64,000 nt of DNA, from contig JAJFKJ010000030.1 of NCBI GenBank assembly GCA_021773275.1, positions 143,580 through 207,579 of the forward strand, read 5' to 3'. The position numbers and the translations under genes were made by a program. A model generated the notes under the pieces. It was given only the letters and a program-made list of their open reading frames with translations, did no database searches and was not told the DNA's origin. The stretch is from Gammaproteobacteria bacterium (lineage in GTDB: Bacteria > Pseudomonadota > Gammaproteobacteria > JABCZS01). This document shows positions 12,680 through 24,855 of this stretch, in pieces (position 1 is the first letter of the stretch; every line of letters begins with the position of its first letter).

Positions 12680-12988
12680 ATGATAATAATAAATCAAATC
12701 ATCGCGCTTTTTATGCTCAATTTGTGCCTTTTGTTTGCAGGCCAGTATTATGCTGGTTTGATGCAACAGCAGCGGGAATATTACTATTTACAACTGGCGC
12801 ATTTAGGCCTTTGGCAAGGCGCAAATATCGCAGCAGATAATAAATTGCCGCTGGTGTATAATCGCTGGCAAGAACAGCTAAAAAATAAGCTACCTGAAGG
12901 CTCAGGCACAATAAATAATAAAACAATAACAATAAACTATAAGAGCAGTTTACAGGATGAAACGATCGTATTATCAGAAACCTTCTAA
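12680..12988 (+). CDS. Small hypothetical protein (102 aa), first gene of a putative minor-pilin-like cluster
   Basis: ORF with a hydrophobic N-terminus, immediately upstream of and overlapping the prepilin-motif gene. No clear motif of its own. Confidence 0.3.
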   Translation: MIIINQIIALFMLNLCLLFAGQYYAGLMQQQREYYYLQLAHLGLWQGANIAADNKLPLVYNRWQEQLKNKLPEGSGTINNKTITINYKSSLQDETIVLSETF

Positions 12989-13766
12989 ACAGGCCGGATT
13001 TTTATTAATAGAGTATTTAGTGGCGCTTGTATTGTTTACAATGGTGCTACTGTATATCGATTCAATTATTGCTTTACACATGCGTGTGCAACAAAAAATA
13101 CAAGCGCAAAATAACACCGTCACGCAGCTAAGACAAATTACTTTACAACTGCAGCCAAAGCTAGCGCAGTCAGGGTATTTGGGCTGCCAAAGTGTAAAAA
13201 ATGCAAAAGATATTATTGTGCATCAGGGTATAGAAACTCGTTTATTGCATGGCCAATCCGTATATCTTCACAAGTCAACATCAGCGGGCTGGCAACCTGC
13301 ATTGCCTAATGCCCTTAACGGCAAAGTTACAGAAAACACAGATGTTTTGGTCATTGAACAAGTAGGCGCATGGACAGTCTCTTTATTGCAAGCAATGCGT
13401 CGCGATGATGAAGCAATTATCTTGCCAAATGTTGTAACTGCGGATAACAGTTGGTTTGTCATTGATGATTGTCAAACGGTGGAAATATTCTCAGCTTTTG
13501 CATTTTATTGTGCTGGCATGACATGCTTGCAGCCGCAACAAGCATTAAGCAAAGCCTATACAGAGCATGCGATAGTCAGCCCCTGGGTAACACAAGCATA
13601 TTATCTGGCAGACGATCAGATATTGCAGGCAAAATTATTACAACCGGAGCAGGCCGCATTGAGCTTGCACGAAGGTGTAGAGCATTGGCAATTAGCATTA
13701 TGGCCTGATCTACTGCAAATAGACTTGCAAACAAAGGAGGATTTTGTATTGTGGTTCGGGTATTGA
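12957..13766 (+). CDS. Prepilin-type N-terminal cleavage/methylation domain protein (minor pilin / pseudopilin-like), 269 aa
   Basis: N-terminus ..KQAGFLLIEYLVALVLFTMVLL matches the G|F-x-L-I-E class III signal of type IV pilins and T2SS pseudopilins. Confidence 0.55.
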   Translation: MKRSYYQKPSKQAGFLLIEYLVALVLFTMVLLYIDSIIALHMRVQQKIQAQNNTVTQLRQITLQLQPKLAQSGYLGCQSVKNAKDIIVHQGIETRLLHGQSVYLHKSTSAGWQPALPNALNGKVTENTDVLVIEQVGAWTVSLLQAMRRDDEAIILPNVVTADNSWFVIDDCQTVEIFSAFAFYCAGMTCLQPQQALSKAYTEHAIVSPWVTQAYYLADDQILQAKLLQPEQAALSLHEGVEHWQLALWPDLLQIDLQTKEDFVLWFGY

Positions 13767-14227
13767 TTGTATTGTTAAGTATAAATTTAGGCGTGGTCTA
13801 TCTTGCAGCGCGCTCCTATCAGCAAAATAAACTAGCGCAAGCGTGGTCTCAGGCAGTGGCCTTGCAAGCAAGTTTACAGCGCGCGCAAACAGCCTGGTTA
13901 CAAGATCTTGATTTTTGGCTTGCGCTTCCGGTGCTAACGCCCGAGGCTTGCCACGGTGCGCCTTGCCTGCTGGAAACACAGAGTGTACAAGAATACGCGA
14001 CCCAGCCAATCAGCTTTTGGGAGCACACAATGCTTGCTATAACATTTGAGGATACTGTGTATGCACATAAAACCTATGCTATATTCGAAGTAATGCCTTG
14101 TAAAGAATCGGAAAAATTATTACGAGGCACCTTTGTTGCAGTTAATGAACAGGGTATGCAGTTGCGCTCCCAATTAGTTGCTCAACAAAATATTGGGCAG
14201 GTATCCTTGCGATACGTAATGGGGTGA
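13751..14227 (+). CDS. Small hypothetical protein (158 aa, GTG start), pilus-assembly-like
   Basis: Overlaps the preceding pilin-like gene by 16 nt. Hydrophobic N-terminus MVRVLIVLLSINLGVVYLAA. Confidence 0.35.
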   Translation: MVRVLIVLLSINLGVVYLAARSYQQNKLAQAWSQAVALQASLQRAQTAWLQDLDFWLALPVLTPEACHGAPCLLETQSVQEYATQPISFWEHTMLAITFEDTVYAHKTYAIFEVMPCKESEKLLRGTFVAVNEQGMQLRSQLVAQQNIGQVSLRYVMG

Positions 14228-14230
14228 ACA

Positions 14231-17200
14231 TTGAGTGCTAACTCATACATTTGTTTATTAAAAAATCGAGGTTTTAGTTTTTTTCTGGCTACTCAGTTTT
14301 TGGGTGCGCTGAATGATAATCTCTATCGACTGGTCGTTTCACTTATTCTCGTAGACACAACTATTCATGGTGGGTCCATTTCACTCGTTGCAATTGTATT
14401 TTTGGTACCTGGAATATTGTTTTCTGGGTATGCGGGGCATTTAGCTGATCGCTATAGTAAACGTAATGTTTTAATCATTACCAAAAGTTTTGAGATACTT
14501 TCAATGTTGTTGGCATTTATTGCCTTGGGCACAGAGTATCACTCATTGATGCTAATTGTGCTATTTACCATGGCAACGCAGTCAGCATTTTTTAGCCCCT
14601 CTAAATACGGCATCATACCTGAGATCGTTGCACGTGAAGATTTGTCACGAGCAAATGGTTTAGTAGAAATGACAACGTTTGTTGCCATTATTGTGGGTAG
14701 TGCTATTGCCGGGATACTGCTGCATTTTTATCATGCACAAATGTATGTTATTAGTAGTGTCCTTGTGGTTATTGCCATTGTGGGCGCAGCCTTCAGTTTT
14801 GGCATCACAAAAGTGAGCGCCAAAGCAAAACATAATAAAATGAGCCTGAACCCGTATTCCGAAATTTATAAAGGTGTGCAGCATTTAAGAGGGCATTTAT
14901 TCCTGACCATGGTCATCATGGGCATTTGCTTTTTCTGGATGATTGCCATTGTGTTCCAGCTGAATCTTTTGGTTTTTGCGCATAAAGAATTGGGGCTACA
15001 GTATTTTGGTGTCAGTATGTTACAGATGGTATTAGCTATTGGTATTGGCGCCGGTGCTTTGTTAGCCGGGCATTTATCATATGATCGTATCGAGTATGGC
15101 TTAATCCCTTTGGGCTTATTGGGTACAGGCGTGGGGATTACAGTCTTAGCATTAATTCCACCATCTGTTACCTGGACATACGTCTTGTTAGTGTGGGCCA
15201 GTATATTTACCGGGTTTTTTATTGTGCCCTTAAAGGCTCTGCTACAAGATTTGCCTCGTAAAACGCAAAAAGGCCGGATGATCGCTACTAACAATGTCTT
15301 TACTGATATCGCTATGTTAACAGGTGCGGGTGTTTTGTGGGCCTTGCAAGTTGTTTTAGAATTATCACCACAAACCATATTTTTATTCTGGGGTATTATT
15401 GCGTTAATTATAACTGCTGCATCTATTTATATGTTGCCAGCCTTTTTTATTCGCCTTGTGCTCTGGATGATGATGCGCACCTTTTACCGCGTGAAAGTAC
15501 ACAATGAACAAAACATGCCAAAAGAAGGCCCAGCATTACTAGTATGTAATCATGTGTCATTTTTAGATGCATTGGTATTATCAGCTGTTTTGCCACGCTT
15601 TATTCGTTACCTAATTCATAAAAAATACTATGACATTAAATCGTTAAACTGGCTGTTTCGCATGGCAAATGCGATCCCGGTAACTTCCGGTAGTGACAAG
15701 GAAAGCATTGAGGACTCATTAAAAATTGCGGCGCGAGAGCTCAAGAAAGGACATGTTGTTTGCATTTTTGCCGAAGGCAGGATTACCCGCACTGGGAACT
15801 TATTGCCGTTTAAGCGTGGTTTCGAACGTATCATGAAAGAGGTTGATGCGCCAATTATTCCTGTATACCTTGATAGATTATGGGATAGCATATTTTCTTT
15901 TTCCGGCGGCAAATTTTTCTGGAAACTACCAAGACGTATTCCGATTGAGATAGGTGTTTCATTTGGCGAACCTATGCCCGCAGATACACAAGCATGGGAT
16001 GTACGCCAAAGAGTACAAGAACTGGGCACACAGATTCAACTCTCAACACCTCACAAACATGACATTCTTCCCTATCGGTTTTTGCAAGCTACGCGTTTTC
16101 GACACGGACAATTTTGCATGGCGGACAGTGACCACAGCCGCATGAAGTACGGGCATTTTATTGCGCACACACTGTTACTTGCAAAATGTCTACGAGACAA
16201 ACATCCAGATGAAAAGTACATTGGCATATTGCTGCCGGCAAGTGTGAATGCTGCAATGATGAATGTAGCCATAGCAATAGCGGGTAAGATAGCAGTATTG
16301 TTGCCATATAATGAAACTAAAAACATCAAATCACATATCGATAAAACGAATTTAAAAACAATTTATAGTGATCACGGGTTTTTACAAGAAAGGCATATTC
16401 GTGATGATTTTGAGTGGCAAGCCATTCGCGATATAGCCTATATCAACAATGATAAAAAAGCTTACTGGTCAGCACGTGTCGCAGCTTTCTTTTTACCTAT
16501 TAAGTGGACGTTGAAACATTACGGGGATTATAATTCCGATTCACAAGCGCCAGTGGCAATACTTTGGTCGGTGCGCGACAACCATCCGCATAGGCCTGTT
16601 GTGCTTTCGCATCAAAGCATTATTGCACCAGTTAATGGGTTTTCACAGGTCTTTGGCGATACCAGTAGTCGCGATCGCGTTATGGGTGTATTGCCTTTTT
16701 TCACCAGCATGGGATTACTGGGAACTGTTTGGCTACCCTTGTTGCAAGGGATGGCGGTGGTGTACCAAAGTGACACCAACCCGGCCCCCGATGCTACGGC
16801 AAAATTAATCAAGCGCCATCGCGCGACCTTGCTCTTCGATGTGGAACAACATTATCGTGAATACCTTAAGCACATGCGTCCAGATGATTTTAGTTATATC
16901 CGCTATGCGATTGCTGGCAATGATATAGAGGATGAAGAGTTTTCACGCGCATTTCATGAACACTTTGGTATCAGTATCCAAACAGGTTATGGCTGTGCAG
17001 AAGTAGGCCCAATATCTATTAATAGTCCCGATGTGCGTTTGCCAGGCCAGCTACAAAAGGGTACAAAACCGGGCTCAGCCGGGCAACCACTACCTTATGT
17101 CTCTATTGTCATTGTAGACCCAGATACTGGTAGTGAGCAGCTGCAGGGCGAAGCTGGTGAGCTGTGGGTTAAAAGTCCGTTTCGGATGCTTGGGTACTGG

Positions 17201-17299
17201 GAAGACGAGGCAGCCACCAAGGCCGCTTTCAAGCAGGACTGGTTCAATACACAAATAATAGTTAGCGTTGATGACGAAGGTTTCCTATACTTTAATTAA
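14231..17299 (+). CDS. aas: Tri-domain fusion: lysophospholipid transporter LplT (MFS) + 2-acyl-GPE acyltransferase (PlsC-like) + acyl-ACP-synthetase-like AMP-binding domain (Aas-like), 1022 aa
   Basis: N-terminal ~400 aa are polytopic MFS. The middle has the LLVCNHVSFLDALVL acyltransferase H(X)4D motif. The C-terminus has YGCAEVGP and GELWVKSPFRMLGYW, typical of ANL adenylating enzymes, but the P-loop is replaced (AILWSVRDNHPHRPVV) and the ORF stops right after ..DDEGFLYFN, before the expected GRxKD hinge. Confidence 0.8.
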   Translation: MSANSYICLLKNRGFSFFLATQFLGALNDNLYRLVVSLILVDTTIHGGSISLVAIVFLVPGILFSGYAGHLADRYSKRNVLIITKSFEILSMLLAFIALGTEYHSLMLIVLFTMATQSAFFSPSKYGIIPEIVAREDLSRANGLVEMTTFVAIIVGSAIAGILLHFYHAQMYVISSVLVVIAIVGAAFSFGITKVSAKAKHNKMSLNPYSEIYKGVQHLRGHLFLTMVIMGICFFWMIAIVFQLNLLVFAHKELGLQYFGVSMLQMVLAIGIGAGALLAGHLSYDRIEYGLIPLGLLGTGVGITVLALIPPSVTWTYVLLVWASIFTGFFIVPLKALLQDLPRKTQKGRMIATNNVFTDIAMLTGAGVLWALQVVLELSPQTIFLFWGIIALIITAASIYMLPAFFIRLVLWMMMRTFYRVKVHNEQNMPKEGPALLVCNHVSFLDALVLSAVLPRFIRYLIHKKYYDIKSLNWLFRMANAIPVTSGSDKESIEDSLKIAARELKKGHVVCIFAEGRITRTGNLLPFKRGFERIMKEVDAPIIPVYLDRLWDSIFSFSGGKFFWKLPRRIPIEIGVSFGEPMPADTQAWDVRQRVQELGTQIQLSTPHKHDILPYRFLQATRFRHGQFCMADSDHSRMKYGHFIAHTLLLAKCLRDKHPDEKYIGILLPASVNAAMMNVAIAIAGKIAVLLPYNETKNIKSHIDKTNLKTIYSDHGFLQERHIRDDFEWQAIRDIAYINNDKKAYWSARVAAFFLPIKWTLKHYGDYNSDSQAPVAILWSVRDNHPHRPVVLSHQSIIAPVNGFSQVFGDTSSRDRVMGVLPFFTSMGLLGTVWLPLLQGMAVVYQSDTNPAPDATAKLIKRHRATLLFDVEQHYREYLKHMRPDDFSYIRYAIAGNDIEDEEFSRAFHEHFGISIQTGYGCAEVGPISINSPDVRLPGQLQKGTKPGSAGQPLPYVSIVIVDPDTGSEQLQGEAGELWVKSPFRMLGYWEDEAATKAAFKQDWFNTQIIVSVDDEGFLYFN

Positions 17300-17366: not shown

Positions 17367-18512
17367 ATGCAAAACCAGAAATTACTTTTAACGGGCGGTA
17401 GAGGCCCGGCTGTATTAGAGATGGCGCGTCAGTTATCACGCCAAGGGCATACTATATTTGTGGCTGAATCCACCAAGATTCAGTATTGCCAATTTTCCAA
17501 TACAGTAAGCAAAAATTTTCTCGTGCCTGATCCGTTACTTGATGAGACGGGTTATATAAATGCGCTAACCGACCTGCTTGATAAATACAAAATAGATATG
17601 TTGATACCTGCTTACGACGAAACCTATTTTATAGCAAAGCACAAAGATAAGCTCACTGAGCATGCAACAGTATTTTGCGATAGTTTAGAAAAAATTAAGA
17701 CACTTAACAATAAGTATACATTTGCAGAGCTGGCGGAAACCTTAAACTGCTACACACCTAAAACTATATTGATGTCTAATGACAATGAGTGGCAAAAATT
17801 CCAAGAAAACCCGAGCTTCACAATGCCGTACATGGTGAAAAGTTTTTATGCATCAGGTGGTTCAGAGGTTGTTACCATCAGAGCAAAAGACGACATTAAA
17901 AAAATTAAATTTAAACCACCTTTTATAGTGCAGGAACATGTTTCAGGAAAAGCATGGAGTAGTACTGGCGTCGCGCATAACGGAGAGATGACATTAAACG
18001 TGGTTTATGAACCTTTATTTATTTACCGTGAAAATGGCCCAGCAATCTGTTTGCAAGGTGTTACCCACCCTGGGATTTTAGCTTTAATTAAGCATGTCGT
18101 TAAATCGCAAAACTACACTGGGTTAATTGGTTTTGACATAATTGAAAAAGAAGATGGTAGCTTGTATTTATTGGAGTGTAACCCGCGCGTTACTAGTGGT
18201 GTGCATTTATTTTCTGCCGAAGATAAGCTCGGTGAATGCTTCCTTAACCCAAACACTGCCTTTCATGAGGCGCAGCCTAAAAAACCAGTGCAGATTAGCG
18301 TCGCAGGTATGCTGAAAGTATTATTCTACTTGAAAAAAGGTCAGTTTAAACAATGGCTGCATTGCGTCACCCACAGCGCAGACGCTGTTTTTGACGCCAA
18401 AGACATTCGCCCAGCCTTATTTGTGCCTGTGTTGGCAGCTTTTTACTTGCATCAGTATATTAAACACTCAAAACTTCCAGATGATAATATCTTCTACCAC
18501 ATGGATTGGTAG
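17367..18512 (+). CDS. ATP-grasp fold enzyme (CPSase-L/D-Ala-D-Ala-ligase-like), 381 aa
   Basis: N-terminal pre-ATP-grasp LLLTGGRGPAVLEMARQL..IDMLIPAYDE. The central domain and ..LYLLECNPRVTSG match the ATP-grasp family pattern. Confidence 0.5.
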   Translation: MQNQKLLLTGGRGPAVLEMARQLSRQGHTIFVAESTKIQYCQFSNTVSKNFLVPDPLLDETGYINALTDLLDKYKIDMLIPAYDETYFIAKHKDKLTEHATVFCDSLEKIKTLNNKYTFAELAETLNCYTPKTILMSNDNEWQKFQENPSFTMPYMVKSFYASGGSEVVTIRAKDDIKKIKFKPPFIVQEHVSGKAWSSTGVAHNGEMTLNVVYEPLFIYRENGPAICLQGVTHPGILALIKHVVKSQNYTGLIGFDIIEKEDGSLYLLECNPRVTSGVHLFSAEDKLGECFLNPNTAFHEAQPKKPVQISVAGMLKVLFYLKKGQFKQWLHCVTHSADAVFDAKDIRPALFVPVLAAFYLHQYIKHSKLPDDNIFYHMDW

Positions 18513-18641: not shown

Positions 18642-18673
18642 GTGGGAATGCCCTGCTGATACGGCGACTGCCC
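18642..18673. repeat. 32-bp direct repeat, copy 2
   Basis: Identical 32-mer. Ends at the stop codon of dapB on the minus strand. Confidence 0.9.
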
Positions 18674-19398
18674 TACAACAAATGTTCAAGTCCATAAACC
18701 AGCTCATGCAAGCTAGGTACTTTTTTGCATGCGAGTACGATGCCAGGCATAAATGATTTTCGGTGCAGTGAGTTATGGGAAATGGTAAGGGTTTCATCGA
18801 CGCCACCAAAAACCACATCTTGTTGCGCAACAACGCCGGGTAGGCGCACCGAGTGAATTTGAATGTCATGATGGTTGTGGCCGCGTGCGTCTAAGTCTTT
18901 GCCGACGATTTCACCGGGCGCTTGTTTGCGTGCGTTGTTGATCATTTCCGCAGTCTTTTTAGCCGTGAATGAAGGCGCATCTTTTTTTCCCGCACGATGG
19001 AACTCAATGATTTCAACATTGGGCAGGTATTGTGCAATCATTGCCGATGCTTGCATCAGCAATACGGCGCCTAACGAAAAATTAGGTGCAATTAAACCGC
19101 CACGTTTTTGTTTTTGGCTTAAGTTTTGTAATGTTTCGATTTGCAGCAGTGTCAACCCTGATGTGCCGATCACTGGGCAGGCATTATTTTCCATAATAAT
19201 TTTGGTGTTCTCGAAAACAACTTCAGGTGTGGTTAAATCTACAACAACTTGTGCTTTGGTATCACGGATGCTGTCGCCTAAGTTGTCGCCACGGGTGAGG
19301 GCGGCTGCGAGATGCAGATCGGGGTCGTTTTCAATCGCGATGACCGCTTCTTGACCCATGCGCCCACGTGCACCATTAATAATTACTGAAATTGTCAT
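18673..19398 (-). CDS. dapB: 4-hydroxy-tetrahydrodipicolinate reductase
   Basis: 241 aa: MTISVIINGARGRMGQ (NAD(P)-binding), HHDIQIHSVRLPG and EFHRAGKKDAPSGTA-like motifs. Confidence 0.9.
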   Translation of the reverse strand: MTISVIINGARGRMGQEAVIAIENDPDLHLAAALTRGDNLGDSIRDTKAQVVVDLTTPEVVFENTKIIMENNACPVIGTSGLTLLQIETLQNLSQKQKRGGLIAPNFSLGAVLLMQASAMIAQYLPNVEIIEFHRAGKKDAPSFTAKKTAEMINNARKQAPGEIVGKDLDARGHNHHDIQIHSVRLPGVVAQQDVVFGGVDETLTISHNSLHRKSFMPGIVLACKKVPSLHELVYGLEHLL

Positions 19399-19521
19399 AC
19401 CTTTCCTCCTGTTTCACCCTATAAAAACCAGTCATCAGCGAAGCGCGTAGGTAAGTTGGGATGTTTTTTGCGAGCAGTAAACGAGCCTGCGAGGTGAGCA
19501 AAAAATTCATCGCAACTTACC

Positions 19522-20265
19522 TTACAGCGAGCGTGATGCATCTGGTTTCGCGTCAATCCATTGTCCTGTTACACCCTTGCTGTCAGGCCCCATTAAATAA
19601 AGATATTCATGCATTAACTGTTCGGCCTCTACCAAGTTTTCAGAAGACTCACCTGGAAAAGCAAGGCGACGTAGCTTGGTTTTAACTGCGCCTGGGTTAA
19701 TGCAATTGACACGAATATTTGAGTTATCTTCTAGTTCATCGGCAAGTGTTTGCATCAGTGCTTGTATGCCGGCCTTGGCAACAGCATAGGCACCCCAGTA
19801 AGCACGCGCTTGCTTACCAATTTCATCGCCAGTAAATAAAACACTCGCATCGGGCGATAACTTTAATGAAGGAAGCAAGGCTTTGGTTAATAAAAATGGT
19901 GCGTTTAAGTTTATTTGTAATACGTCATACCATTGCCTTACATCGTAATTTGAAAGCGGTGTCAAAGAGCCCAGGGAAGCAGCATTGTGCAAGATGCCAT
20001 CTAAACGGCCCAAACTATGCTCGATAGTTTCATGTAGTTTTTCATACTCTTCTACATTCGCGCCTTTTAAATCCATGGGGACAATAGCAGGCGTTGGTGC
20101 TCCCATTGCTTCGATTGCATCGTACGTTTTTTCAAGATTTTGTGGTGTTCTGCCGAGCAAAATAACAGTTGCACCCTGTTGCGCAAACGTTTTAGCAGCA
20201 ACGGCGCCTATGCCATCGCCAGCACCAGTGACAAGGATAACGCGGTCTTGTAAAGAATTATTCAT
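19522..20265 (-). CDS. Short-chain dehydrogenase/reductase (YciK-like)
   Basis: VILVTGAGDGIGAVAAKTFA (TGxxxGxG), NNAAS and YxxxK (YAVAKAG) motifs. Confidence 0.85.
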   Translation of the reverse strand: MNNSLQDRVILVTGAGDGIGAVAAKTFAQQGATVILLGRTPQNLEKTYDAIEAMGAPTPAIVPMDLKGANVEEYEKLHETIEHSLGRLDGILHNAASLGSLTPLSNYDVRQWYDVLQINLNAPFLLTKALLPSLKLSPDASVLFTGDEIGKQARAYWGAYAVAKAGIQALMQTLADELEDNSNIRVNCINPGAVKTKLRRLAFPGESSENLVEAEQLMHEYLYLMGPDSKGVTGQWIDAKPDASRSL

Positions 20266-21048
20266 TTAGCACCTGAATCGGTAGTAGTAACTGTAAAATA
20301 ATTTGGCCAAAGGTGTTAAGTCGATATGCTGTTTTAACACAGCCATCGGGTCCTTCGCCAACAAGCTTAATAGTTCGGAGTATATCATAGTCATCACGCG
20401 GATAGAGCTTAGCGTTTTGGGCAGTTTATCCAAATCTACTGGCATTGCTGCTCGCGTATCAGCAATGAAACTTTGCAGACAAGCTAGCGATTCTGCTTGT
20501 GCTTGCTGCAGCTGCCATAGTTCACAACTTGTGTGAGTGCGGGTTTGTTCTGGTATGTAATGTAGAAACCGTTGGCTTTCACCAAGTTGCTGCAGTATGC
20601 GTACGCGTTCGATAAAACATGCCACTTGTTGTAGCAATTTTGTTGCAGGTTCATGGGTGTCGAGCACGCAGGCATATAGCTTTAATAGGCTGCCTAGTTT
20701 TTTTTCAGCATAACGGTTTAAATCTTGATTGTTAAAATACAAAACTCTATCGATATCCATTTCTATAGTGGTAAAGATATCTTGCCAATAAGCTTCGGGC
20801 AGCTCATAGTTCACGAATGTGTTTTGTAATGCTTTTACCGCAGGCAACTGCGGTGCGCCATGGTAGGCCGCATGGACGTCTTGTTGCCACAGTTGCAAAG
20901 TTTGCCTTGAAACCATCGCTTCATCGCTTTTGTAGGGAATGCGGGCGAGCTCATCAAAAAGCGTATAAATAACATCAAGCGCTTGAAAGCGCTTATAATT
21001 TTGTGTTCGCAAGCTGTAATATTCTATCGTTGGGCGTTGTAAATTCAT
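20266..21048 (-). CDS. Squalene/phytoene-synthase-family protein (HpnC/D-like), 260 aa
   Basis: Pattern LQLWQQDV..GAPQLPAVKAL..LPEAYWQDIFTTIEMDIDRV..YACVL resembles the conserved core of the trans-isoprenyl diphosphate synthase head-to-head family. The Asp-rich motifs look degenerate. Confidence 0.45.
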   Translation of the reverse strand: MNLQRPTIEYYSLRTQNYKRFQALDVIYTLFDELARIPYKSDEAMVSRQTLQLWQQDVHAAYHGAPQLPAVKALQNTFVNYELPEAYWQDIFTTIEMDIDRVLYFNNQDLNRYAEKKLGSLLKLYACVLDTHEPATKLLQQVACFIERVRILQQLGESQRFLHYIPEQTRTHTSCELWQLQQAQAESLACLQSFIADTRAAMPVDLDKLPKTLSSIRVMTMIYSELLSLLAKDPMAVLKQHIDLTPLAKLFYSYYYRFRC

Positions 21049-21065
21049 GATAGGATTCTATAATA

Positions 21066-21548
21066 ATGCAGACAACAAAGGAAGCGGAAATGAGTTACGT
21101 AGAAAACACCATGATGTCGGATGAAATTTTAGTCTTGCAAGGCAAGGTACATTGGATCATTTTCATGCCGACTTTGAGCTTATTTGTTATTGCTAGCGTA
21201 TTGTATTACGCATTAGATCAGTTGCTTTTGTCCTTTGTGATTACCTGCTTTGCCTTTATGGCTGCATTTCGTGCCCTTATCTATTATTTCACGACGGAAT
21301 TGGCAGTCACGGATCGTCGTGTATTGGCTAAATTCGGTTGGATCCGACGTTCCACCTATGAGCTCAATTTAGCCCGGGTAACTGGTTTAAATGTAGAGCA
21401 ATCTGTAATGGGTCGGGTCTTAAATTACGGTAATGTCGTTGTGCGTGGTATGGGTGGTGATATGACGCCGATCCCTGCTATTAACGATCCGATTGCTTTT
21501 CGACACCAAGTATTGGGTGAGGTCGAGGGGCGTGAGCGCCAAATTTAA
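21066..21548 (+). CDS. Membrane protein with bacterial PH (bPH_2/YdbS-like) domain, 160 aa
   Basis: Two TM helices followed by a ~80-aa domain whose pattern is consistent with bPH_2. Confidence 0.45.
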   Translation: MQTTKEAEMSYVENTMMSDEILVLQGKVHWIIFMPTLSLFVIASVLYYALDQLLLSFVITCFAFMAAFRALIYYFTTELAVTDRRVLAKFGWIRRSTYELNLARVTGLNVEQSVMGRVLNYGNVVVRGMGGDMTPIPAINDPIAFRHQVLGEVEGRERQI

Positions 21549-21551
21549 AGG

Positions 21552-22250
21552 TTACTTGCTGGCTGTGAGCAGATAATTTACCCAAGTTTTGCCACCCAGC
21601 GTGAATTGCTCACGTAGAGGGTTATATTGCATGCCCCGGATATCGTTGCTTTTCAGCCCATGATTTTCCAGCATGGCATCCAGTTCACTGGGCTTGATAA
21701 ATTCACGGTAGCTATGGGTCCCTTTTGGCAAGAGTTTTAACACATATTCTGCGCCTGCGATGCCCTGTATAAAAGCCATAGGGTGGCGGTTCAGGGTGGA
21801 GAATACAGCAGTGCCTCCTGGTTTTAATAGCTTGGCGCAGGCCGCGATGATGCTCTCAGGCTCAGGCACATGTTCGAGCATTTCCAGGCAGGTGAGGACA
21901 TCATACTGGGCCGGATGCTTTTTAGCATGGGCCTCAATGGTCTCACCTAGATAAGTGATTGCCAGTGATGCATCTTCGGCGTGCTGCTGTGCCACTTTAC
22001 GTACTTTATCGGCCAGTTCTAGGCCGGTCACCATGGCACCGCCTTTGCTCATCGCTTCTGCTAACAGGCCGCCACCGCAGCCGACATCCAGCACCTGCTT
22101 ATCAGTGAGTGATACCTGCTCCTGTATATACCGATAGCGCAGCGGGTTCAGCAGATGCAGAGGTTTGCAGGGGCCAGCAGGGTCCCACCAGTGCTGGGCC
22201 ATTGCATCAAATTTATCGAGTTCATGTTGCGCGACGTTATGATATTCCAT
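21552..22250 (-). CDS. ubiG: Ubiquinone biosynthesis O-methyltransferase
   Basis: SAM-binding [13 protein letters not shown]. The homologous N-terminus starts at the internal Met ([15 protein letters not shown]..), so the ORF-track start at 22322 is likely too long. Divergent from gyrA, as in E. coli. Confidence 0.85.
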
Positions 22251-22305
22251 GCCGCATTGTACCCCAAAATGTGGTAAAATATCCCTTACATATAGAGGAT
22301 TTAAC

Positions 22306-24855
22306 ATGGCCGAATTCGCCAAACAAATATACCCAGTTAATATAGAAGACGAACTAAAGCAGTCTTATCTTGATTACGCAATGAGCGTGATTATTGGCCG
22401 CGCACTGCCTGATGTACGCGATGGCCTCAAGCCGGTGCATCGACGCGTGTTGTTTGCGATGCATGAGCTCAGCAATGATTGGAATAAACCGTATAAAAAA
22501 TCTGCACGTATCGTCGGTGACGTTATTGGTAAATATCATCCGCACGGTGATACAGCCGTATACGACACGATAGTACGTATGGCACAGCCATTTTCGCTGC
22601 GTTATATGCTTGTCGATGGCCAGGGTAACTTTGGTTCAGTCGATGGCGATTCACCTGCTGCAATGCGATATACTGAAATTCGCATGAGCAAAATGGCGCA
22701 TGCTTTATTGGCCGATCTTGAAAAAGACACGGTAGAGTTTTCACTGAACTACGATGAAACTGAGAAAATACCCAATGTTTTGCCGACACGGGTTCCGAAC
22801 TTATTAATCAATGGTTCAGCAGGTATCGCTGTGGGTATGGCGACAAATATTCCGCCGCACAACCTCAATGAAGTTGTTAATGCTTGTATCGCATTGATTG
22901 CAAACCCAGCACTCAGTTTTGAAGAGCTGCTTGAGTACATACCAGGCCCTGATTTTCCGACGCACGGTATTATCAACGGTAAAGCTGGCATCATTCAAGC
23001 TTATAAAACAGGCCGTGGCCGCATTTTGATCCGTGCCCGCGCTAAAATAGAAGTTGATGAAAAAGGTAAGCAAACGATCGTCGTTCATGAATTGCCGTAT
23101 CAGGTTAATAAAGCACGGTTAATTGAAAAAATTGCCGATTTAGTGCGTGACCGTAAAGTGGAAGGCATCAGTGCGCTACGCGATGAGTCTGACAAAGATG
23201 GTATGCGTATGGTGGTTGAAGTTAAGCGCGGTGAAAATGCGGAAGTATTGCTAAACAATTTATACGCACAAACACAGCTGCAAGTTGTCTTTGGCATTAA
23301 CATGGTAGCGCTTGAGGGCGGCCAGCCAAAAATCCTTAACTTGAAATCTATTTTAGAAGCGTTTGTTCGTCATCGTCGCGAAGTTGTAACACGCCGCACA
23401 ATATTTGAATTAGCAAAAGCCAAAGAAAGGGCGCATCTTTTAGAGGGTTTGGCTGTAGCCTTAACAAACATCGACCCAGTGATTGCCTTAATTAAAGGGT
23501 CAAAAAACCCGAAAGATGCTAAACAAGCCTTGTTAGATACACAATGGTCTGCAGGCGAAGTCATGCGTTATTTAGAAAAAGCAGGTTTAGACCAAACACG
23601 CCCTGAAGGTTTACCAAAGCATTTTGGTATTCAAGGCACGAGCTATCAGTTGTCCGCCGAGCAAGCGCAAGCTATTCTTGATTTAAAATTGCACCGTTTG
23701 ACAGGTCTTGAGCAAGACAAAATCATCGAAGAGTATCATAAGCTTGTCGAAGAAATTAAAGCTCTACTGGATATTTTGCAAGACGCTGATCGTCTCTTGA
23801 CTGTTATTAAAGATGAGCTGCTCGAAATCAAAGAGCAATTCGGCGACGCGCGTCGTACAGAAATCATTTCAAGCCAACAAGATTTAGACGTTGAAGATTT
23901 AATTACCGATGAAACGGTTGTTGTCACGATGTCCGGTGAAGGTTACGTGAAATACCAAGCGCTGGATGTCTATTCTTCACAACGTCGTGGTGGTCGCGGT
24001 AAATCTGCAACCGATGTTAAAACAGAAGATATGATCGAGCATCTATGTGTTTGTAACACCCATGACACCTTGTTGTGTTTCTCAAGCTTGGGCAAGGCGT
24101 ATTGGTTGAAAACATACCAATTACCACAAGCCTCGCGTGCATCGCGTGGTAAGCCGATCGTGAATTTGCTACCGTTAGCTGCTGAAGAGCGCATTAATGC
24201 CATGTTGCCGATTCGTGAGTTCGACCAAAATCATTATATCGTGATGGCAACTTCGCAAGGTATTATCAAGAAAACTTCACTTGCTAATTTTGCACGACCA
24301 CGCTCTAGCGGTTTGATAGCCTGTGATTTGCAAACTGGTGACCAGTTGGTTTCTGTGTCAGTTACCAACGGCGAACAAGATATCATGTTATTCACTTCGC
24401 AGGGCAAGGCAATCCGTTTCAAAGAAGATGACGTGCGAGAAATGGGGCGAACAGCCCGTGGTGTGCGTGGTATTAAATTGCCTGTTGATGCGCATCTTAT
24501 TGCCATGATGGTTCCAGATGAAGGCATGGCTGTATTGATGGGTACAGAAAAAGGTTTTGGTAAACGTACACCAGCAGATGATTTCCCAGTACAAGGCCGC
24601 GGCGGCCAAGGTGTTATTGGTATTCAAACCAATGGCCGCAATGGTGAAGTTGTTGCTGTGGTGCCGGTGCATGAAAACGATGAAGCGATGCTGATCACAG
24701 ATAAAGGCACCCTGGTACGCACGCCTGTTGAAGAAATTTCGCTAATTGGTCGTAATACGCAAGGTGTGCGTTTGATTAATTTAACAAATGGTGAAAAACT
24801 AACCGCTATTCAGCGTGTACAAGAGATCAATCAAGAAATCAATGAGGAAGATTGA
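22306..24855 (+). CDS. gyrA: DNA gyrase subunit A
   Basis: [57 protein letters not shown].., a close match to the GyrA N-terminus. The upstream in-frame extension of the ORF overlaps ubiG and is not used. Confidence 0.95.

Follow-up and report, generated by a model that had tools for sequence, protein, structure and literature searches.

The stretch of DNA analysed here – 64,000 nucleotides of a gammaproteobacterial contig (GenBank assembly GCA_021773275.1, contig JAJFKJ010000030.1, positions 143,580 to 207,579 of the forward strand), referred to below as the window – encodes a protein in which an LplT-like transporter, a PlsC-type acyltransferase and an incomplete relative of the synthetase half of Aas are joined in one chain. 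In textbook accounts of the bacterial lysophospholipid repair cycle, Aas is an enzyme with two functions, whose synthetase half is credited with providing the acyl-acyl carrier protein (acyl-ACP) that Aas uses. In the window protein, this half – a member of the ANL superfamily – has lost both its C-terminal lid and the motifs that bind ATP, and the same truncation recurs in a whole clade of short forms. With moderate confidence in the explanation as a whole, we regard the open reading frame (ORF) as a member of a conserved, monophyletic LplT-Aas subfamily of uncultured Legionellales-like gammaproteobacteria, whose ANL module lost its lid at the A8 hinge and whose ATP-binding motifs decayed afterwards. 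Its product is, rather probably, a lysophospholipid flippase-reacylase that uses preformed acyl-ACP and keeps the ANL N-terminal subdomain as a non-catalytic scaffold. The parts of the ORF are as follows.

14231..17299, forward strand: whole ORF, LplT-like MFS transporter, PlsC-type acyltransferase and truncated ANL domain (1022 residues; ORF list, Pfam, NCBIfam)
14258..15430, forward strand: LplT-like MFS domain with 12 predicted helices (residues ~10–400; MFS_1 3.8e-35, NF008397 LplT 3.3e-44, helices of the AlphaFold2 model)
15488..15871, forward strand: PlsC-type acyltransferase domain (residues 420–547; PF01553 4.7e-30)
15548–15568, forward strand: HX4D motif NHVSFLD (residues 440–446, with H441 and D446)
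Within 15488..15871, forward strand: FAEGRITRTG block of the acyltransferase (residues 513–522)
16058..17296, forward strand: ANL-superfamily N-terminal subdomain only, with degenerate catalytic motifs (residues ~610–1022; Foldseek, model confidence (pLDDT), nonsynonymous differences (pN))
16565..16597, forward strand: degenerate A3 P-loop, WSVRDNHPHRP in place of FSSGSTGxPKG (alignments to long forms and to E. coli Aas)
17240..17299, forward strand: degenerate A7 region (WFNTQI versus WYxTGD) and end of the ORF, ...DDEGFLYFN and stop, just ahead of the A8 hinge (alignment)

The ORF begins with TTG, 4 nt past the stop codon of the ORF upstream, and closes with TAA (17297–17299); its product is identical to an entry of a public protein collection (P0001), for which an exact look-up gave no recorded contig. 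An initial annotation, made from the letters of the sequence, had described it as a single 1022-residue chain composed of an MFS transporter, a PlsC-type acyltransferase (NHVSFLD) and an ANL domain, and Pfam, NCBIfam and BLASTP all support this composition. Pfam places MFS_1 at residues 20–365, Acyltransferase at 420–547 and AMP-binding at 790–990, the last (PF00501, 4.8e-38) being a partial match that covers only profile positions 180–384, that is, the second half of the profile. Among NCBIfam models, the best match is to NF006386/PRK08633 (fused acyl-[ACP]--phospholipid O-acyltransferase, 1147 positions), with 902.7 bits over model positions 6–1036 only, below the curated cut-off of 1221 bits for a full-length member.

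As the initial annotation had it, lplT and aas of E. coli are separate neighbours: in strain MG1655, the two genes overlap and lie in the order aas-lplT. By BLASTP, residues 10–400 of the window protein match E. coli LplT (27% identity, E 3e-24), and residues 414–1019 match positions ~9–607 of the 719 residues of E. coli Aas (26% identity, E 7e-48). The NDN motif of the MFS domain holds D29, which aligns to the conserved D30 of E. coli LplT; N28 is invariant in 100 of 100 aligned proteins, while D29 and N30 are invariant in the 26 short forms and present in at least 90% of the proteins overall. Similarly, H36 of E. coli Aas aligns to H441 of the HX4D motif, the window protein has both the HX4D and the FxEGxR..G blocks of a PlsC-type acyltransferase, and these motifs are kept in all short and long forms aligned. 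Every short form thus retains the LplT NDN, the HX4D and the FAEGxxTRTG signatures. A sequence search of the PDB found no structure of Aas or LplT.

In the third module, motifs were counted across the alignment of 100 sequences, with 73 long forms set against the short forms. Four elements are invariant in 73 of the 73 long forms: the A3 P-loop SSGSTGxPKG, the A4 His (FFHSFG), the A5 Thr (YGCTE) and the A7 Asp (TGD). The window protein has lost all four – the corresponding segments read WSVRDNHPHRP, FFTSMG, YGCAE and NTQI – besides A8 and A10. At A5 and A7, the substitutions are Thr to Ala and Asp to Ile, at positions that contact AMP and ribose, whereas the A5 Glu is still present, as is the GEL/A6 region; the initial annotation had listed YGCAEVGP and the GEL region as retained. 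The decay is graded within the clade: one short-form subclade reads FSRGxxTSxQG at A3 and still has the A7 Asp, while the subclade of the window reads WSxxxxxxKPV, with A5 Thr and A7 Asp variable. In the pairwise comparison, the Aas P-loop FTSGSEGHPKG aligns to LWSVRDNHPHRP (residues 778–789, nt about 16562–16597). The end of the ORF falls opposite ...DEQGFVQIQ of Aas, directly ahead of GRAKRFAKIAGE, so that ~112 Aas residues, including the A10 Lys (LGSGKPD), are without a counterpart; both E. coli Aas and the ~1133-residue homologs run on for about that length, in agreement with the earlier statement that the chain stops at the hinge and does without the C-terminal subdomain and its catalytic Lys.

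Since the mapping of residues onto E. coli agrees with it, the earlier description of the sequence was accurate. That description had itself named an intact but mis-aligned P-loop as a result that would overturn it; none was found in the 100-sequence alignment, and because SSGSTGxPKG fills the very column in question in all 73 long forms, a mis-alignment is ruled out by this alignment together with the pairwise BLASTP comparison with E. coli Aas. The hallmarks of an ANL enzyme – A3 [ST][ST]G[ST][ST]GxPKG, A5 Thr, A7 Asp, the A8 hinge and a C-terminal subdomain with the A10 Lys – are thus missing from the window protein. Judged by its motifs – four substituted (P-loop, A4 His, A5 Thr, A7 Asp) and two missing (A8, A10) – the ANL half is unable to act as an ordinary adenylating acyl-ACP synthetase.

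The truncation is not peculiar to this assembly. A search of a collection of 5.8 billion proteins returned more than 2500 homologs, and among the best 120, which were examined, most are ~1133 residues long; 27 clusters are shorter (1013–1068 residues), 42–78% identical to the window protein and drawn from independent NCBI, JGI, ENA and Logan assemblies. In all 27, the chain stops at the A8 hinge, no more than a few residues away from a shared DEEGFLFF motif – in one subgroup, the last residues are the hinge ‘GR’ – and the ~1133-residue homologs go on past that point with TDRLSRFSKIGGE...GSGK. In a neighbour-joining tree of the 100 sequences, 26 short forms make up one clade with zero long forms inside it, which answers affirmatively the earlier question of whether the ORF of relatives also stops here. 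That 26 diverged homolog clusters share both the end-point and the degeneration of the P-loop is far beyond chance. Another short form (P0032) lies on a 3.2-kb contig and was not used as the basal member, because the contig end may have cut it.

The initial annotation had also foreseen the possibility of a frameshift concealing a ~110-residue C-terminal extension. When six long-form C-terminal subdomains were compared by tblastn with the window and all short-form loci, no remnant of the lid was detected in any frame; the sole matches were the last residues before the stop and, in the window, one weak and spurious match inside FolD. A separately encoded lid is likewise ruled out by this search of the window and the short-form loci. 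That a normal full-length fused Aas was cut short here by a frameshift error in sequencing or assembly, or by a new nonsense mutation, is accordingly very improbable: the ORF does stay under the NCBIfam cut-off and ~110 residues short of NF006386, but the same end-point is found in 26 clusters from independent assemblies, down to 42% identity, the next gene begins just 67 bp past the stop, without any trace of the C-terminal subdomain, and the whole ORF is under strong purifying selection. Given an end-point kept throughout a monophyletic clade, the lack of a downstream remnant and this selection, we rule out a frameshift or recent pseudogene. One protein outside the clade does look like an independent recent truncation and lends the artefact some plausibility: P0045, whose P-loop is intact.

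As for P0045 itself (locus L089, 2213–5697), it is cut at the same hinge, is otherwise long-form-like and has the P-loop FTSGNTGMPKG; ~400 bp of non-coding DNA lie 3′ of its gene, and no remnant of the C-terminal subdomain was detected in L089. It may have lost the subdomain recently, or the assembly may be at fault.

What is left of the synthetase is maintained. Relative to a 78%-identical homolog (locus L001), pN is 0.13 for residues 796–1020 and 0.12 for the MFS domain, with synonymous differences (pS) saturated at 0.7–0.9; within the clade, the second half of the ANL region shows the same identity as the MFS domain. The remnant is under purifying selection as strong as that on the transporter. 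It is also predicted to fold: the AlphaFold2 model of the whole protein has a pLDDT of 88.3 and a pTM of 0.77, with ~90 for the remnant, and Foldseek superposes residues ~600–1022 on complete ANL N-terminal subdomains over ~425–445 columns (E 1e-20), with TM-scores of up to 0.83 when normalised to chains that consist of the N-domain only, as expected of an N-subdomain fold.

From these features, a possible mode of action can be sketched. The LplT-like domain would flip lysophospholipids, as suggested by homology and the conserved Asp, and the PlsC-type domain, with its HX4D and FxEGxR..G blocks intact, would re-acylate them. Instead of using ATP to activate free fatty acid itself, the enzyme would receive its acyl donor ready-made, most probably acyl-ACP produced by type II fatty-acid synthesis; we propose this step because E. 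coli Aas binds ACP at a high-affinity site and accepts de novo acyl-ACP in vitro (PMC13170283), and because the acyltransferase LpaT and the acyl-ACP synthetase AasC are separate proteins in Chlamydia trachomatis (PMC6167442). The ANL N-subdomain would then act as a non-adenylating scaffold, e.g. for the docking of ACP or of the acyl chain, for oligomerisation or for stabilising the acyltransferase. The model also fits the known system, in which LplT contacts the acyltransferase domain of Aas, not its synthetase domain (PMC11416262).

Several observations weigh against the scaffold model. Preformed acyl-ACP is a poorer substrate of E. coli Aas than the acyl-ACP made by the enzyme (PMC13170283). 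The A5 Glu is present in 24 of the 24 short forms tabulated, the GEL/A6 region of the remnant is strongly conserved, and the column of the PKG Lys holds Lys or Arg in 13 of 17 members of the window's subclade. Conservation as strong as this could mean that the remnant still binds a ligand or takes part in catalysis, instead of being no more than a scaffold. An alternative that we consider possible, albeit doubtful, is therefore that the remnant has been repurposed – as the initial annotation had allowed – to bind a fatty acid, acyl-AMP, a nucleotide or a lysolipid, so as either to gate the transporter or the acyltransferase or to catalyse another reaction. A second half as conserved as the transporter would be expected in that case, as would the retention of the A5 Glu, of the A6 GEL-type region, of the loop NxPxVRxPGxLQxGxKxGSxGQPLP, which is conserved in the remnant, and of the basic residue in the PKG-Lys column; nevertheless, the residues that contact ATP or AMP (the P-loop Gly/Ser/Thr, A5 Thr and A7 Asp) vary freely within the clade, which argues against nucleotide binding, and a new invariant polar cluster was not identified in the alignment.

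Another alternative concerns the gene next door, which the initial annotation had correctly placed immediately after the fusion.

17367..18512, forward strand: ATP-grasp protein of 381 residues, related to PRK06849 (Pfam ATP-grasp_3, NCBIfam)

The two genes lie on the same strand, 67 bp apart, with no terminator-like site between them. The downstream product scores above threshold with Pfam ATP-grasp_3 and matches NF005315/PRK06849 over nearly its full length (261.9 bits, E 9e-78), below the curated cut-off of 406 bits; a word-based search with it found 12 relatives. The initial annotation had speculated that such an enzyme might supply another ATP-dependent activation step. Spelled out, the ATP-grasp enzyme would activate a fatty acid as acyl-phosphate and pass it to the ANL remnant or to the acyltransferase, replacing the lost adenylation – a proposal that we think improbable. 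The version restricted to the window's own subclade, in which the PRK06849-like ATP-grasp protein (with an SDR protein in some relatives) took over fatty-acid activation and an acyl-phosphate or other species feeds the fusion, strikes us as slightly less probable still. Were it true, it would amount to a previously undescribed, ATP-grasp-dependent entry of fatty acids into membrane lipids.

The distribution of the gene speaks to both sides of this question. Short-form loci share a syntenic block made up of a pilin-like trio, the aas-like gene, a variable slot and then, on the reverse strand, dapB, an SDR gene and a SQS_PSY gene. An ATP-grasp gene is found downstream in five of the five informative loci of the window's subclade (the window, L001, L003, L083 and L084) – directly in the slot in the window and L001, and behind an SDR gene in L003, L083 and L084 – and the short forms P0006 and P0007 share their contigs with ATP-grasp homologs; it occurs in 0 of ~78 long-form loci, which come from unrelated phyla. 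(The contig scan included two short-form loci among the 80 matches listed.) Moreover, the subclade that bears the ATP-grasp gene has the most decayed ANL motifs, and distant members of the ATP-grasp family sit in lipid-type or carotenoid clusters. All this is favourable to a division of labour. However, the slot is filled differently in the second subclade, by a protein of 1280–1314 residues (L085, 10068–13919; L086, 10074–13916; L087, 5324–9268) that starts 2–5 nt past the aas-like stop and has an N-terminal signal sequence and several transmembrane stretches, and a 1283-residue member of which gave no Pfam or NCBIfam match. In L088 (1788–9686), the short form P0018 has the mlaFEDCB operon directly upstream and an enoyl-CoA hydratase gene downstream, a context that fits a role in membrane-lipid homeostasis.

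Truncation and P-loop decay thus occur without the ATP-grasp gene in L085, L086, L087 and L088, and as a universal partner the gene is ruled out by the other genes in the slot of these short forms. The earlier question of whether the ATP-grasp gene is always adjacent is answered affirmatively only for the window's subclade (five loci and two contig-sharing pairs). Because the block as a whole is syntenic, the adjacency may simply be inherited gene order – one evolutionary event, not a repeated association – and in three loci the SDR gene intervenes. The PRK06849 family, too, carries no assigned function. To our knowledge, no ATP-grasp enzyme charges ACP or feeds PlsC-type acyltransferases. From the contents of the slot across loci, we conclude that the adjacency is real, confined to one subclade and inseparable from inherited gene order.

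Distant NF005315/PRK06849 members in lipid-type clusters were seen at two further loci (L090, 2018–7304; L091, 406–10230). One of them, above the family cut-off, lies between a FabH-like ketoacyl synthase (KAS) III gene and genes for an NAD-dependent reductase and a metallo-β-lactamase (MBL)-fold protein, near an MMPL transporter; the other is inside a carotenoid cluster, adjoining P450 and CrtC genes. Such contexts hint at lipid-like carboxylates as substrates of the family. In L083 and L084, the 3′ end of the ATP-grasp gene overlaps that of the convergent dapB.

A steadier neighbour than the ATP-grasp gene is found on the other side of the fusion gene.

12680..14227, forward strand: three overlapping small ORFs directly 5′ of the fusion gene (4 nt), the middle one with a prepilin-type motif, KQAGFLLIE

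Relatives of this pilin-like trio match PF07963 N_methyl, and the trio precedes the aas-like gene in the window, L001, L002, L003, L083, L084, L086 and L087, being syntenic in both short-form subclades. We treat these minor-pilin-like genes as genomic context of a gene putatively involved in lysophospholipid recycling, not as established functional partners. Farther downstream (18673–22322), the window carries dapB (reverse), an SDR gene (reverse), a gene for a 260-residue SQS_PSY-family protein (reverse), one for a bPH_2 membrane protein (forward) and one for a UbiG-like methyltransferase (reverse), which are syntenic in relatives.

There is no rRNA in the window, and the assignment of the host draws on GyrA (22249–24855), which is 68–69% identical to proteins of Legionella spp. 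and also to those of Thiohalobacter and Thioalkalivibrio, while identities of 85–87% are reached by metagenomic proteins only. These values point to a deep-branching, uncultured Legionellales-like gammaproteobacterium. Cultured Legionella is absent among the named proteins in the best 120 matches of the fusion protein, most of which are without a name.

The scaffold model, if correct, bears on how Aas works in general. This lineage kept the N-terminal fold of the synthetase under selection while dropping the lid and the ATP-binding motifs, which implies that the fold serves another purpose besides adenylation, such as docking ACP, assembly or stability, and that preformed acyl donors can sustain re-acylation. 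The short-form clade accordingly offers a natural separation-of-function variant for dissecting Aas, as well as a clear case of a pseudoenzyme domain within a membrane-lipid enzyme. A literature search found no description of a conserved clade whose synthetase module is truncated and devoid of a P-loop, and the pipeline label ‘acyl-ACP synthetase/long-chain-fatty-acid--ACP ligase’ is probably wrong for its members.

The fusion as such, by contrast, is already known and widespread. The initial annotation had taken the three-domain architecture for something unusual, a view that does not survive the count of more than 2500 homologs and the existence of two NCBIfam models for fused LplT-Aas (NF006386/PRK08633 and NF005291/PRK06814); fused ORFs of this kind also figure in the literature, where they remain uncharacterised (PMC11416262). 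One close comparison is with the full-length fused proteins (~1133 residues) of Acidobacteriota, Nitrospirota, Deltaproteobacteria, Dongia and others, which have the same domain order, the same transporter and acyltransferase motifs and ~41% identity across all 1022 residues. Unlike the clade of the window, however, these retain SSGSTGxPKG, FFHSFG, YGCTE, TGD, the hinge and the C-terminal subdomain in 73 of 73 cases. With E. coli LplT and Aas, the window protein has all three modules in common – together with the flippase Asp, the acyltransferase His and the ANL fold – but arranges them as one LplT-acyltransferase-ANL chain instead of two genes in the order aas-lplT, and its ANL module has no P-loop and breaks off where GRAKRFAKIAGE would begin. 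Chlamydia LpaT and AasC provide a looser analogy, suggesting that an acyltransferase can work apart from a synthetase, with acyl-ACP supplied in trans; yet Chlamydia keeps an active synthetase elsewhere, whereas none was seen in the window, where the apparently dead module is still covalently attached. Finally, the remnant superposes on crystallised lone ANL N-domains – that of Mycobacterium tuberculosis FadD13/FACL13 (3t5c) and 3ivr – with target-normalised TM-scores of 0.82–0.83. Those structures come from active enzymes whose P-loops are intact, and represent either truncations made in the laboratory or partial models, whereas the truncation in the window protein is natural, ancient and accompanied by the loss of motifs.

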